Assembly: GCA_903945175.1 (NCBI GenBank)
Contig: CAJAUM010000115.1
Span: 975-64,974, forward strand
Reading direction: 5' to 3'
Origin: an uncultured Bacteroidales bacterium
GTDB lineage: Bacteria; Bacteroidota; Bacteroidia; Bacteroidales; FEN-979
Length of the DNA: 64,000 nucleotides
The notes beneath the pieces are model-generated. The model was not told where the DNA came from. It made no database searches and saw only the letters and a list, made by a program, of their open reading frames with translations. Position 1 is the stretch's first letter. Each line of letters begins with the position of its first letter. The position numbers and the translations under genes were made by a program. Shown piece after piece: positions 3,764-56,085 of this stretch.

Positions 3764-3783
3764 GTCACGCGTCACGCGTCACG
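3764..3783 (+). repeat. Heptamer tandem array (GTCACGC) x ~3, intergenic
   Basis: gtcacgc gtcacgc gtcacg read directly, 60 nt upstream of the mlaE start. Confidence 0.9.
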
Positions 3784-9789: not shown

Positions 9790-10547
9790 CGATCCTGTTT
9801 AGTTTCCTCATCCCTCCGAAAAAGGGGCTCCCGGTACTCATGTATCACAAAATCCTTCAGGAACACCCTGATGGACTTACGGTGTCTGCAGACCAGCTTG
9901 ATCATCAGCTGATGTACCTGAAGGAAAAGGGTTATCAGACCATTGGATTAAAAACCCTGAAAAACCTGTTGAAAGATGGGGGGCTGCTGCCAAAAAAGAC
10001 GATCATCCTGACATTTGATGATGCGTATACAAATTTTCGGGATTATGCTCTCCCCTTGCTGAAAAAGTATAATTTCACGGCCACCGTGTTTGTTCCTGCG
10101 GCTTTTATTGGAAAAACGAATATCTGGGACAGGGGCAATGATGCCATCATGACAGCTGAAGATTTGAAACGGCTTGTACTGCAGGATGGGATAGAGATTG
10201 GGTTACACTCATTTTTGCACAGGAGTTATGGCGACCTTGCCATTTCCGACATGGAGGAGGATCTGAACAACTGCAGGCAGACACTTGAGTTTTACGGAAT
10301 CCCCTACGTGAAGGCGCTGGCTTATCCCTACGGTGGCTATCCGAAGAGGGATCCTGAACTGAAGGCACAAATGATTTCACTTTTTCAAAAGACCGGGCTC
10401 GATTTCGCCTTGCGCATCGGCAACCGCATCAATCCCTGGCCGATTCGCCTGCCGTATGAAATCAACCGCATCGATATCAAAGGAACCGACAGTTTTTTTA
10501 CTTTCAGAACGAAGTTGACAAAAGGCCGTGCCAAACTATTTGCCTAA
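9786..10547 (+). CDS. Polysaccharide deacetylase (NodB-type)
   Basis: ILTFDDAYTNF motif. The start overlaps the GT2 stop (ATGA). Confidence 0.75.
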   Translation: MTILFSFLIPPKKGLPVLMYHKILQEHPDGLTVSADQLDHQLMYLKEKGYQTIGLKTLKNLLKDGGLLPKKTIILTFDDAYTNFRDYALPLLKKYNFTATVFVPAAFIGKTNIWDRGNDAIMTAEDLKRLVLQDGIEIGLHSFLHRSYGDLAISDMEEDLNNCRQTLEFYGIPYVKALAYPYGGYPKRDPELKAQMISLFQKTGLDFALRIGNRINPWPIRLPYEINRIDIKGTDSFFTFRTKLTKGRAKLFA

Positions 10548-13234: not shown

Positions 13235-14482
13235 TCAGGGAGTCGGATTGACCCAGTCCCCATTTTCCTTGATGAGATTGATCAGCGCCTCCACCGCCAG
13301 GGATTCGTCAAGATTCTTTTCTACCAGTTGCTGTTTTTTGTACAAATTGATTTTGCCTTTGCCTGCGCCCACGTAACCATAGTGTGCGTCGGCCATTTCG
13401 CCTGGTCCGTTGACAACACAGCCCATCACGGCAATTTTCAGTCCGGACAGGTGCGATGTTTTAGCCTGAATATTTTCCAGCGCCGACTGGATATTAAATT
13501 GGGTCCGGCCGCATGAGGGGCAGGCAATAAACTCTGTTTTGGTAATCCGGGCCCCTGCTGCCTGGAGGATATTGTAAGCCACCGGAATTTCAAATTCAGG
13601 ATCTTCGGTGAGGGAAACCCTGATGGTATCGCCGATGCCATCGGCCAGCAAACTGCCGATCCCGATGGCTGACTTAATCCGTCCATCTTCTCCGGCGCCA
13701 GCTTCTGTGACCCCGAGGTGGAGCGGGTAATTCATACCAGCCTCCCTCATCTTCTCAACCAGCAAACGGTTAGCGGCGATCATCACCTTGGTGCTGCTGG
13801 CTTTCATAGATAAGACCAGATTTTGAAACGAGAGACTTTCGCAGACCAGTGCAAACTCCAGGGCTGACTGAACCATGCCCAACGGGGTGTCTCCATATTC
13901 GTTCATGATGCGATCGGAGAGCGACCCATGATTCACACCGATCCGGATGGCCGTGCCGTGATCTTTACAGATTTTTAAAAGCGGGGAGAGGCGCGTGGAA
14001 ATCAGTTCCAGCACATCACCCTCCGTGACGCGTGATGGATCAATCGTGACGCGTGATGGATCAATCGTGACGCGTGACGCATCAATCGTGACGCGTGACG
14101 CGTGACGCGTGACATTGCTTTTTTGACCTGGCATGTAATTCCCAGGATTAATCCTGATTTTTTCGACAATTCCTGCGGCGATTTCAGCGATTTTAGGATT
14201 AAAATGGACATCCGCGATCAGGGGGGTATTGTATCCGCGGAGGTGTAGTGCTTTTTTAATTTCCCGCAGATTTTCAGCCTCTTTAATTCCCGGAGTGGCA
14301 ATGCGGACATATTCACAGCCGGCTTCGATCATCCGGATGGCCTGTTCAACCGTCGCTTTGGTGTCGAGGCTGTTCGTGCTTGTCATCGACTGAACACGCA
14401 CGGGATTGTCCCCTCCCATGGGCAGATGGCCCACTTCAACAACCCGGGTTGCAAACCGCTGATATAATTGCTTGCCTTTCAT
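13235..14482 (-). CDS. ispG: 4-hydroxy-3-methylbut-2-en-1-yl diphosphate synthase, carrying an in-frame repeat insertion
   Basis: RINPGN, CPSCGRT and GCVVNGPGE motifs. 415 aa. Confidence 0.9.
   Translation of the reverse strand: MKGKQLYQRFATRVVEVGHLPMGGDNPVRVQSMTSTNSLDTKATVEQAIRMIEAGCEYVRIATPGIKEAENLREIKKALHLRGYNTPLIADVHFNPKIAEIAAGIVEKIRINPGNYMPGQKSNVTRHASRVTIDASRVTIDPSRVTIDPSRVTEGDVLELISTRLSPLLKICKDHGTAIRIGVNHGSLSDRIMNEYGDTPLGMVQSALEFALVCESLSFQNLVLSMKASSTKVMIAANRLLVEKMREAGMNYPLHLGVTEAGAGEDGRIKSAIGIGSLLADGIGDTIRVSLTEDPEFEIPVAYNILQAAGARITKTEFIACPSCGRTQFNIQSALENIQAKTSHLSGLKIAVMGCVVNGPGEMADAHYGYVGAGKGKINLYKKQQLVEKNLDESLAVEALINLIKENGDWVNPTP
14025..14113 (-). repeat. Heptamer-derived array inside ispG (three 21-nt super-units plus GTGACGC x ~3.7 on the plus strand)
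   Basis: Read directly: 14025-45, 14046-66 and 14067-87 are 21-mers gtgacgcgtga(t/c)g(g/c)atcaatc; 14088-14113 is gtgacgc repeated. Translates in frame as [30 protein letters not shown]. Confidence 0.95.
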
Positions 14483-14501: not shown

Positions 14502-15251
14502 CTAAATCAGCCCCTTCACCCTTGGCTTTCCTGCCACAAAATCTTTCAGGTAGAAGGGCTCAAAATAGGCCAGGCTTTCAAATTTTTTTTCTCTGAACTT
14601 CTCTTCTGCCAGCCTTGTGATGAATCTGGCTGATGCCTGGAATCCATCCATAAACAAAGCATTGGGATGATCGCCCAAGACAGGCTTGCATTTTTCAGCA
14701 CCTTCACCCCCGAAAGCAATCCTATGGTCAGTCAGGAGCTCCTGAAATGAAAAATCATCGATGATTTCAGCGCAAACCTCCCGAATCTCCCTGTTTTGCT
14801 GATCAAATACCGCACTGTAAACCTCCATTCTCCGCGCATCGATCATGGGACATAAAAAAATCCCGGATTGACCATTGGTCATTGGTAATTGGTCATTGGT
14901 CATTGGTAATTGGTCATCGGTCATTTGTAATTGGTCATTCATCCCCACGGCCATGGCCTGGAGTGTGTGAACGGCAATCAGGGGTTTATCGATGGCATAA
15001 CAAAGACCTTTTGCTGCAGCCACCCCAATGCGCAGACCGGTATATGAGCCGGGGCCCATGCTCACAGCAATGGCATCAAGATCAGTGATCTGAAATCCGG
15101 AAGATTTTATTAGGTCGTCGATAAACAGGGTGAGCATGGCAGAATGAACATTCCGTGCTGAAGATTCCTTTATTCCCAGGATCTTTTCATCGCGCGCCAA
15201 TGCCACGGAACAGACCTCAGTGGCCGTTTCAATGCAAAGGATCAGTGCCAT
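14502..15251 (-). CDS. tsaB: tRNA threonylcarbamoyladenosine biosynthesis protein TsaB, carrying an in-frame repeat insertion
   Basis: ILCIETATEVCSVAL N-terminus and GPGSYTGLRIGVAAAKG motif. 249 aa. Confidence 0.85.
   Translation of the reverse strand: MALILCIETATEVCSVALARDEKILGIKESSARNVHSAMLTLFIDDLIKSSGFQITDLDAIAVSMGPGSYTGLRIGVAAAKGLCYAIDKPLIAVHTLQAMAVGMNDQLQMTDDQLPMTNDQLPMTNGQSGIFLCPMIDARRMEVYSAVFDQQNREIREVCAEIIDDFSFQELLTDHRIAFGGEGAEKCKPVLGDHPNALFMDGFQASARFITRLAEEKFREKKFESLAYFEPFYLKDFVAGKPRVKGLI
14873..14942 (-). repeat. Heptamer tandem array inside tsaB (CATTGGT/AATTGGT x 10 on the plus strand)
   Basis: Ten consecutive 7-mers read directly, with a 21-nt higher-order pattern (cattggt cattggt aattggt). 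Translates in frame as the repeat tract MNDQLQMTDDQLPMTNDQLPMTNGQ within tsaB. Confidence 0.95.
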
Positions 15252-54432: not shown

Positions 54433-55466
54433 ATGAGCGTTGAAACATTTGTTACCGATAAAGCCGGCTTGATCACATTCTATGAAGCCATCATGGCCAG
54501 TCACGAAACCTATGCCCCGGTCGAGAAATTCGGCAAATTTGATTTTAAGCAGGTGAAAAGCCTGGCGGAATGTGACCCAGAATCGCCCATTGCAAAGACC
54601 CAGAGCATCAAGCCCCTTTTCTTCCCCAGGTCGGCCAAGGTGATGAAATATGTTGCCACAAGCACAGGAACGGAAGTTTCGGAGGTTGATGAGGATCCGC
54701 TTGCCGTTAAACGCGTCATCCTGGGCGCAAAACATTGCGATGCCCGTGCATTGCAGGTTCTTGACAAGGTATACAACTGGGATTACATCGATACCGATTA
54801 CCAGAAGCGCCGGGAAAATACTGTGATTATCTCGACCCGTTGCGACAAGGCTGACACCCATTGTTTCTGCACTTCGCTCGATTACGATGTTGAAAATCTC
54901 AATGCCATGGATGTTTTGGTTGTACATGGATCCGATGGAAAGGTTTACATCAAAGCCAGGACAGAGAAAGGTTCTACACTTTTAAATACAGAGGTCACGC
55001 GTCACGCGTCACGTGTCACGGAAGAAGCCGCAGCACCCGACCTGAAAAAGCAATACGAAGCCTTTGCGGGTTCTTTCAGGCTTAAGATGGATTATTCGGA
55101 GGTTAATTCAAAATTGTCGAAGATCTTCGACACCCCGGAATTTGAAAATGTCTCGGGAAATTGTGTGAGCTGCAACACCTGTGCCTTTGTTTGTCCGACC
55201 TGCCATTGCTTCAAAATCTCCGATGAAAAAATCAAAGATACAGGGTTGCGATATAAAAGCTATGACTCCTGTAACAACGGATATTTTACCCTGATGGCGG
55301 GCGGTCACAATCCCCGTCCGGCCAAGTACCGTCGCTGGCGGCAGCGTGCCATGCACAAGTTTGTATACTACAAGGAGCGCTTTGGCGAGAACCTTTGTGT
55401 GGGGTGCGGTAAATGTACCATAGCCTGCCCGGTAAACATCAGTATTTTTGAGGTGGTTAATCAGGT

Positions 55467-55488
<22 letters not shown>
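54433..55488 (+). CDS. flxB: AsrA / sulfhydrogenase-beta-like 4Fe-4S protein (FlxB-like) with an in-frame heptamer insertion and a repeat-encoded C-terminus
   Basis: [16 protein letters not shown] and [12 protein letters not shown] motifs. The last 7 codons and the TAG stop lie in the GGCAGTA array. Confidence 0.65.
54994..55021 (+). repeat. Heptamer tandem array (GTCACGC x 4, last two degenerate) inside flxB
   Basis: gtcacgc gtcacgc gtcacgt gtcacgg read directly. Translates in frame as VTRHASRVT. Confidence 0.95.
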
Positions 55489-55627
<139 letters not shown>

Positions 55628-55633
55628 AAGGGG

Positions 55634-56020
55634 ATGGAAGTGGAAAAGAAAAAAATTGTTTCCTATAAAGATCTTGAGGTCTGGAAAAAGGGGGTCCGAT
55701 TTACCATTGAAATCTACAGAATTACCAGCGAGTTTCCAAGTAGGGAACAATTCGGGCTTACCAATCAGTTGCGCAGGGCCGCATCCTCTATCCCTGCCAA
55801 TATTGCAGAAGGATATGGTCGTGAGAGCACGAAAAATTATATTCAGTTCCTTAAAACTGCCAGAGGTTCATTGAATGAAGTCGAAACTTTTCTTTATATA
55901 GGATTTGAATTGGAATATCTTAATAAACAAACCCTTGACAACTTGATTATTAAAACCACTGAACTTGGAAAAATGATGAATAGCCTGATCAAAAAACTAA
56001 ACCCTAACCCCACTGCCTAA
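55634..56020 (+). CDS. Four-helix-bundle protein (23S rRNA intervening-sequence protein / Avd family)
   Basis: [10 protein letters not shown]...[30 protein letters not shown]...[16 protein letters not shown] are hallmark motifs of the family. Confidence 0.9.
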
Positions 56021-56045
56021 TGCCTACTGCCTATTGCCTATTGCC
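56011..56045 (-). repeat. Inverted copy of the GGCAGTA/GGCAATA array (5 units)
   Basis: cactgcc taatgcc tactgcc tattgcc tattgcc. Its reverse complement matches array units 13-17 (55551-55585) at 33/35 positions. It contains the TAA stop of the four-helix-bundle gene. Confidence 0.95.
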
Positions 56046-56085
56046 TTATCCCAATCAAGATTAACAAAACATCACACACATAACT

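Follow-up and report, generated by a model that had tools for sequence, protein, structure and literature searches.

The 64,000-nt stretch of contig CAJAUM010000115.1 analyzed here (hereafter the window, to which all positions refer; forward strand, positions 975 to 64,974, GenBank assembly GCA_903945175.1) derives from an uncultured Bacteroidales bacterium, and encodes on its plus strand a 351-amino acid (aa) iron-sulfur (Fe-S) subunit of the HydB/ShyB/AsrA family (54433..55488). This protein is termed FlxB-like, and its gene flxB, on the basis of operon context. Inside flxB, at 54994..55021 on the plus strand, lies an array of four heptamers (GTCACGC twice, then GTCACGT and GTCACGG), which is evident in the sequence and in the open reading frame (ORF) translation, and is also recovered by Tandem Repeats Finder (TRF) at 54994-55020, with a period of 7, 3.9 copies, and 95% matches. 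Base 54994 is the first of codon 188, codons 188-196 (bases 54994-55020) read VTRHASRVT, and base 55021 opens the codon for Glu197. The same nonapeptide is encoded by ispG (13235..14482, minus strand, 415 aa; TIGR00612, 450 bits vs. a cut-off of 280), in which four GTCACGC-type units followed by 21-nt super-units (ATTGATCCATCACGCGTCACG) occupy 14024..14113 of the minus strand (translation, TRF). The ispG array encodes VTRHASRVT(IDxSRVT)x3 with its GTCACGC units in the sense orientation, and has the conserved RINPGNY motif on one side and the LSPLLKICK helix on the other. An initial annotation, made from the sequence itself, had reported both the four plus-strand units encoding VTRHASRVT in flxB and the identical peptide in the minus-strand ispG, and both are read here as they were described. 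A third GTCACGC array of 2.9 units is present in the window at 3764..3783 on the plus strand (sequence, TRF).

The initial annotation further attributed the shared peptide purely to the repeat, which agrees with the translation that GTCACGC imposes: in all three sense frames, (GTCACGC)n gives one cycle, V-T-R-H-A-S-R. Because 7 and 3 share no factor, three units (21 nt) correspond to one seven-residue period, and the same cycle results in any sense frame. The complement of (GTCACGC)n reads D-A-stop-R-V-T-R, and a TGA occurs in each of its frames once three units are present; arrays within genes must therefore be sense-oriented and encode VTRHASR. Only the codon phase at the edge of an array can vary, and this phase is the same in flxB and ispG because both arrays open with a GTC codon. 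All in-ORF copies whose frame was read, including those of flxB and ispG, are in the sense orientation. The occurrence of VTRHASRVT in these two proteins is thus the forced reading of a dispersed heptamer; a stop-codon and orientation argument of this type was made earlier for TAACTGA repeats (MacGregor; PMC4679880).

The assembly comprises 4.41 Mb in 155 contigs (44.9% G+C), and its relatives are freshwater Bacteroidales, Prolixibacteraceae or 'Draconibacterium'-labelled metagenome-assembled genomes (MAGs). In the following, G numbers denote genomes and L numbers orthologous loci, with G000 being the window's own genome; outside the window, coding status was judged from ORF length only. There are 321 period-7 arrays with at least 2.8 copies in the genome (TRF), and at a score of at least 38 the period-7 arrays number 289, compared with 9 of period 6 and 18 of period 9. 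A small number of unit classes predominate, namely AATGACC (62 arrays), ACGCGTC, which is equivalent to GTCACGC (59), AATGACG (37), ACACGTG (20), and AATTACC (20). The 59 GTCACGC-class arrays are dispersed over dozens of the 155 contigs, and three to four units are present in 49 of them. Heptamer arrays are depleted in coding sequence, with 70 of the 321 (22%) located within long ORFs vs. 82% of random windows. Intergenic copies of GTCACGC typically consist of a T-run, GTCACGCGTCACGCGTCACG, and a second T-run, and often adjoin arrays of other families. The GTCACGC arrays start with GTCACGC and finish with GTCACG; their unit junctions form a 6-bp palindrome, ACGCGT, every 7 bp, and the neighbour unit GTCACGT forms CACGTG. 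Period-8 arrays are also in excess in G000 (106 at the common threshold, with units such as AACAGGGT and AAGGTGAC), and when in frame these give eight-residue periods, e.g., PVTLSPCHPVTLSPCH in an epimerase ORF (C15:~26.8 kb).

A perfect 20-nt GTCACGC pattern (x2.9) and a reversed control pattern were searched in 61 genomes. The former has 46 matches in G000 and the latter has none in any of the 61 genomes, which, together with the excess of period 7, excludes chance. In the window's genus, five genomes have 85, 46, 24, 13, and 8 matches to the GTCACGC pattern, respectively, another has a single match, and a further seven have none. The heptamer families are distributed independently of each other among these relatives: GGTCATT has 125 matches in G000, 60 in G014, 10 in G003, and approximately none elsewhere, and the ATCCGGC family is found in all sampled genomes of another genus and in none of the window's genus.

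A genome-wide search for the peptide itself, as proposed in the initial annotation, identified cyclic permutations of VTRHASR in 11 ORFs of at least 150 codons. The description of two unrelated proteins sharing a peptide is accordingly correct as to their unrelatedness, but not as to their number, which is at least 11 long ORFs. Apart from FlxB and IspG, five of these were scanned with Pfam, and their domains are mutually unrelated: a MurF-alanine racemase fusion (with Ala_racemase_C interrupted by the array), an M1 peptidase, an amino-acid permease, a DUF218 protein, and an NAD-dependent epimerase. Degenerate VTRHASR copies are also present in ORFs that, judged by eye, resemble DnaE, PurL, and PFL. 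The second peptide proposed for such a search, DQLPMTN, is encoded by the CATTGGT family and recurs in four long ORFs, namely TsaB and three others.

Alignments of homologues place the flxB array in a hypervariable inter-domain linker of the Fe-S protein (∼residues 185-204; 54985..55044, plus strand). The homologue set for flxB comprised 120 proteins (73-100% identity), and the 39 sequences of the alignment subset have a mean column identity of 81%; the sole long unconserved block in this alignment, with ∼15 consecutive consensus 'x' columns between the invariant residues G180 and F211, is the one in which the array lies. The peptide is therefore not part of a conserved FlxB/AsrA domain, and in an alignment with the closest relative of known structure (P. 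furiosus sulfhydrogenase I beta, 9nez_B; E = 6e-38, residues 14-339), VTRHASRVT falls in a gapped, unconserved stretch. The array is not an insertion private to this genome, having been inherited across a clade. VTRHASRVT or close variants are found in most flxB orthologues down to ∼80% identity, and a VTRHASRVT-type linker of a constant 9 codons is present in 24 related species.

Periodicity of 7 nt at the flxB site occurs in many of the ∼100 orthologous loci read, with units that differ by lineage; under a strict rule, 41 of 79 distinct sequences have no clear repeat there. In addition to GTCACGC (peptide VTRHASR), the units at this site include GAATATC (EYRISNI), GCAGTCA or GCAGTCG (SQQSAVG), and a set of one-mutation neighbours, ATCCGGC, ATCCTGC, ATCCAGC, ATCAAGC, and ATCTGGC (PASGIxH), while the units CCCGGCT, GTACGAA, GACGGCG, ACGAATG, and GCAGCCC give other peptides. 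In a maximum-likelihood tree with the linker left out, the VTRHASR type is ancestral within a 39-row clade, in which linkers derived from other heptamers have taken its place several times; the linker lengths group at 15, 17, 22, and 31 residues. The corresponding ispG loop (RINPGNY to LSPLLKICK) reads IDKKGRQTDPSYWMNEANYSRELE in genera without repeats and is GTCACGC-derived in G000, G003, G014, and G036. In another genus (L083, L085, L095, and L099) it consists of compound arrays with as many as three different heptamers (AGGGTCG x4, ATCCGGC, and GCATCCA x4) that total up to ∼40 residues, directly after the catalytic-face motif RINPGNY. The length of the ispG array varies widely across genera, and differs between G000 and G003 by 14 aa, or 2 x 21 nt. 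An apparent ∼400-nt insertion in some related loci was rejected, as it reflects a weak ferredoxin-domain match to an upstream paralogous Fe-S gene. Two of the loci, L033 and L064, belong to bins labelled Alphaproteobacteria and Syntrophothermus, yet are nested in the Bacteroidales clade at 70-76% identity, and are probably mis-binned contigs.

The conservation of the flxB array extends to positions at which the protein would be unaffected. At four-fold third positions, members of the VTRHASR clade are 69% identical to the window in the array and 49% in the rest of the gene, and within the array these positions are 77% identical to the ideal repeat. Codon bias was rejected as the cause of this conservation, because the array codons are non-preferred (ACG makes up 16% of Thr codons, GCG 14% of Ala codons, and GTC 19% of Val codons). 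In G003, L005, G036, and G028, the array is identical to (GTCACGC)n at 25-27 of 27 positions, whereas directly upstream lie 14 codons that rank among the gene's most diverged (48-70% nucleotide identity). The import of the array from a relative by recombination was considered and rejected for the distant species, in which a highly diverged flank adjoins a nearly identical array.

For a comparison of array integrity with array abundance, sixteen further genomes were scored through their loci. Across the 24 species with a VTRHASR-type linker, the identity of the flxB array to the ideal repeat correlates with the number of other perfect GTCACGC arrays per genome (Spearman 0.83), and a partial rank correlation of 0.77 is left when protein identity to the window is controlled for. 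The evidence that array integrity tracks the genome-wide abundance of the family is strong, but not conclusive. Individual genomes follow the same trend: G032, the closest relative sampled in the family set (90% aa identity, near-identical flanks), has no such arrays and an flxB array matching at 23 of 27 positions, and G028, at 79% aa identity to the window, has 8 arrays and matches at 25 of 27. At one locus, L007 (G065:C100:∼10498-10517), the flxB array is GCGTTACGCGTTACGCGTTACG, i.e., GTTACGC x3, with the peptide VMRYALRVT and an unchanged length. There are 29 GTCACGC arrays in G065, and a GTTACGC array was found only in its flxB, a pattern of concerted evolution within the coding array itself and not of sequence copied in from elsewhere. 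This uniqueness weakens the idea that homogenization proceeds solely through gene conversion by other arrays.

We regard it as very probable that the flxB tract is an in-frame member of a genome-wide GTCACGC heptanucleotide family, of the class of the long simple sequence repeats (LSSR) and short tandemly repeated repetitive sequences (STRR), that resides in a tolerant linker and is homogenized at the DNA level. Under this explanation, the VTRHASR peptide itself would have no selected function, and an ongoing DNA-level process inside the array would keep its units homogeneous. Such a process could be slipped-strand misalignment combined with templated correction, or an in-frame gain and loss of 21 nt at a time, as seen in ispG. 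The process would be active only in genomes with an active heptamer family, and could reflect either a general tendency to slippage or a factor dedicated to the unit family; where homogenization has stopped, the array would decay to ordinary linker sequence or be replaced.

Several points weigh against this explanation. The correlation between integrity and abundance ignores phylogeny, and the counts depend on MAG completeness and assembly quality. The homogenization would have to occur at a fixed length and with four units only, through a mechanism that is hypothetical. The AlphaFold2 model of the FlxB-like protein (computed from the 39-sequence alignment) has a mean predicted local distance difference test (pLDDT) score of 58.7, with the entire Fe-S domain below 50, and its pLDDT of ∼90 near residues 181-200, i.e., at the linker, gives no support for a disordered loop and tends instead to speak against one; it is from the alignments only that the flxB linker would be read as tolerant. 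A protein-level role of VTRHASRVT is a further counterpoint, albeit one to which we assign a very small weight.

A more specific proposal is that the heptamer arrays are not passive microsatellites but are acted on by a family-specific system encoded in the genome (a binder, a 'writer', or one of a recombination type), which seeds and homogenizes them, and whose loss would cause the arrays to die genome-wide; we put this forward tentatively, as less probable than its absence. If such a system exists, the flxB and ispG copies would be tolerated off-target products, the array state at one orthologous site would report the activity of the system species by species, and the origin of STRR-like heptamers would become addressable by phylogenetic profiling.

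Of the alternatives to DNA-level homogenization, the one that fares best, while still unlikely, is that the array is a cis element at the DNA or RNA level, either a binding site for a protein that recognizes the unit or a signal for structure or recombination, which purifying selection would maintain both within and between genes in those genomes that encode its partner. The conservation at the nucleotide level, non-preferred codons included, would be expected of such an element, as would the correlation of integrity with genome-wide abundance, the stereotyped three to four units with T-runs beside the intergenic copies, the patchy and independent distribution of the families among congeners, and the ACGCGT palindrome every 7 bp (read from the sequence). 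The partner, however, is a hypothetical one, and many orthologues manage with unrelated sequence at the site. Moreover, G065 tolerates a fully substituted unit at flxB alone, which fits local homogenization better than a fixed binding sequence.

A neutral fossil, derived from a single ancestral insertion and subject since then only to decay by point mutation, is less probable still. It would account for the constant 9 codons in all 24 species and for the many versions that are clearly decayed (e.g., 13-18 of 27 positions in L118, L013, and L035). Yet four-fold sites elsewhere are near saturation (44-58% identity) while several distant species retain 25-27 of 27 positions, decay follows the genome-wide loss of the family instead of divergence (as the comparison of G032 with G028 illustrates), and the private GTTACGC unit of G065 has been homogenized.

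We give very little credence to a phase-variable contingency locus, in which gain and loss of 7-nt units would switch flxB (and ispG) on and off. A unit that is not a multiple of three within an ORF is the classic layout for slippage frameshifts (background in PMC4679880), but no frameshifted or unit-step flxB variants were found in the assembled sequences of the 120 homologues, the ∼100 orthologous loci, and 41 contigs. The exact FlxB-like protein is encoded on 36 of these contigs and a one-residue variant on 5, ispG differs in length between close relatives in 21-nt steps, and the arrays reside in housekeeping or essential genes (IspG, TsaB, and PurL-like and DnaE-like ORFs) as opposed to surface determinants. 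Equally implausible is the convergent recruitment of VTRHASRVT into several proteins as a motif under selection (a contact or modification site rich in His/Arg/Ser/Thr). The amino acid sequence is retained in many orthologues, and the local AlphaFold2 confidence at the peptide is high, but the same peptide recurs at loops, domain splits, and termini of proteins that include enzymes, a permease, and a peptidase, other orthologues carry unrelated and likewise heptamer-derived peptides (e.g., SQQSAVGSQQSA or MNIEQRISNNEF), and selection on the protein does not explain the conservation of synonymous positions. The flxB array is thus very unlikely to be either a functional motif or a phase-variation switch.

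GTCACGC is a new unit, in a new host lineage, within a known class of heptamer repeats. Heptanucleotides are the most over-represented LSSRs in many bacteria (Mrazek, Guo and Shah, 2007, as reported in PMC4679880 and PMC4692102), and, as those two papers relate the LSSR surveys, coding repeats are mainly multiples of three. The flxB array and its genome share with LSSRs the head-to-tail tandem units beyond chance, the excess of period 7 over neighbouring periods, and a mostly non-coding location; in the accounts given there, such repeats are attributed to polymerase slippage. They differ in that 70 of 321 arrays here are in frame in long ORFs, many of them housekeeping, and that one in-gene array has a constant length in 24 species. 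Closer parallels are the dispersed families TAACTGA, from Beggiatoaceae, Cyanobacteria, and five Bacteroidetes (MacGregor, 2015; PMC4679880), and GGGNATC, from Xanthomonas and Nostoc (Rehm et al., 2015; PMC4692102). As in these, a single GTCACGC heptamer recurs at many unlinked loci (tens to hundreds in the known families), is under-represented in coding sequence, and is patchy among relatives. Stop codons in one orientation restrict its in-gene placement, as for TAACTGA, and the three to four units of 49 of the 59 arrays resemble the preference for approximately four units in GGGNATC. In contrast to both, the unit here is GTCACGC, which does not form G-quadruplexes and includes the palindrome ACGCGT. 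Its host, a freshwater Bacteroidales/Prolixibacteraceae-like MAG, combines several families in one genome, and in-frame copies in conserved enzymes are common and traceable across orthologues. Contingency loci of Haemophilus and Neisseria (PMC4679880; PMC2651432) likewise have units within ORFs that are not multiples of three, but differ from the arrays described here in the points given above, i.e., frame-switching variants, host genes, and the 21-nt steps of length change.

The classical STRR units of heterocystous cyanobacteria are CCCCAGT, TTGGTCA, and CAACAGT, and cyanobacterial STRR heptamers were reportedly described by Mazel and colleagues in 1990. The occurrence of several heptamer families per genome is common to the STRRs and the genome studied here. 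The AATGACC class, the most abundant of this genome with 62 arrays, corresponds to the STRR unit TTGGTCA by rotation and complement. GTCACGC is none of the three classical units, and the host, a Bacteroidales organism, belongs to a different phylum; the heptamers of this genome are not known to be linked to heterocysts or filaments. STRR heptamers are also present in Calothrix PCC 7601, as cited in PMC4692102.

Limited literature searches found no paper on a single orthologous coding site that carries different heptamer arrays across species, and none on a link between the integrity of an in-gene array and the abundance of its family. The shared peptide, taken alone, is a curiosity that is simply explained by the in-frame reading of a 7-nt repeat. 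Comparison across species turns it into a useful natural experiment, in which a 27-nt orthologous site within a conserved enzyme records the birth, maintenance, decay, and replacement of arrays in ∼100 genomes, in step with how the repeat family fares in each genome as a whole. Why heptamers accumulate has been an open question since the cyanobacterial STRRs were described, and the comparison of genomes with fresh and with decayed arrays offers a handle on why bacteria accumulate particular heptanucleotide repeats. In addition, repeat-encoded inserts of 9 to ∼40 residues are tolerated in loops of IspG, TsaB, and other essential enzymes, a point of relevance to annotation and to the interpretation of 'low-complexity' inserts in MAG proteins.

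The assignment of the host protein as FlxB-like is justified by its operon context, and not by a curated model. Fer4_22 matches residues 243-336 (Pfam), the NCBIfam models for ShyB, HydB, and AsrA score 157, 153, and 126 bits, respectively, each far under its curated cut-off, and the library returned no FlxB-named model. The gene order is, first, an HdrC-like Fer4 protein, an HdrB-like protein with CCG domains, HdrA, and an MvhD/FlxD-type protein (PF02662), followed by a 283-aa Fe-S protein, the FlxB-like ORF, a PF05635 'IVP' gene, and an AsrB/HydG-like flavoprotein (flxA-like). The known layout is FlxABCD-HdrABC (Ramos et al., 2015, cited in PMC5861303), where, as this system is outlined in PMC5861303, flxB is the HydB-like Fe-S subunit encoded with flxA (FAD/NAD(P) + 2Fe-2S), flxC, flxD (MvhD), and hdrABC; the window has these operon neighbours. 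The name flxB used in the initial annotation thus agrees with the Flx-Hdr context, but is not backed by the family models, all of which fall under their cut-offs.

Other repeat arrays adjoin these genes. A GGCAGTA array of 22.6 copies (55467-55624) begins within the FlxB-like ORF, with its first units encoding the final six codons and stop (AVGSRQ*). FlxB-like orthologues stop at ∼residue 346, and the C-terminus of the window protein is consequently made by the repeat. The PF05635 gene (55634-56020; 23S rRNA intervening-sequence protein/bAvd-like four-helix bundle), located between the flxB-like and flxA-like genes, is flanked on both sides by arrays: GGCAGTA at 55467-55624 and TGCCTAT at 56014-56046. 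In tsaB (ORF 14502-15251, minus strand), a CATTGGT array of 9.6 copies is in frame at 14873-14939 (…LQMTDDQLPMTNDQLPMTNGQ…). Pure ACCAATG units would read TGA in this gene, and a variant, ACCAATT, once per 21-nt period keeps the super-unit open; the stop seems to have been mutated away, and the super-unit amplified afterwards.

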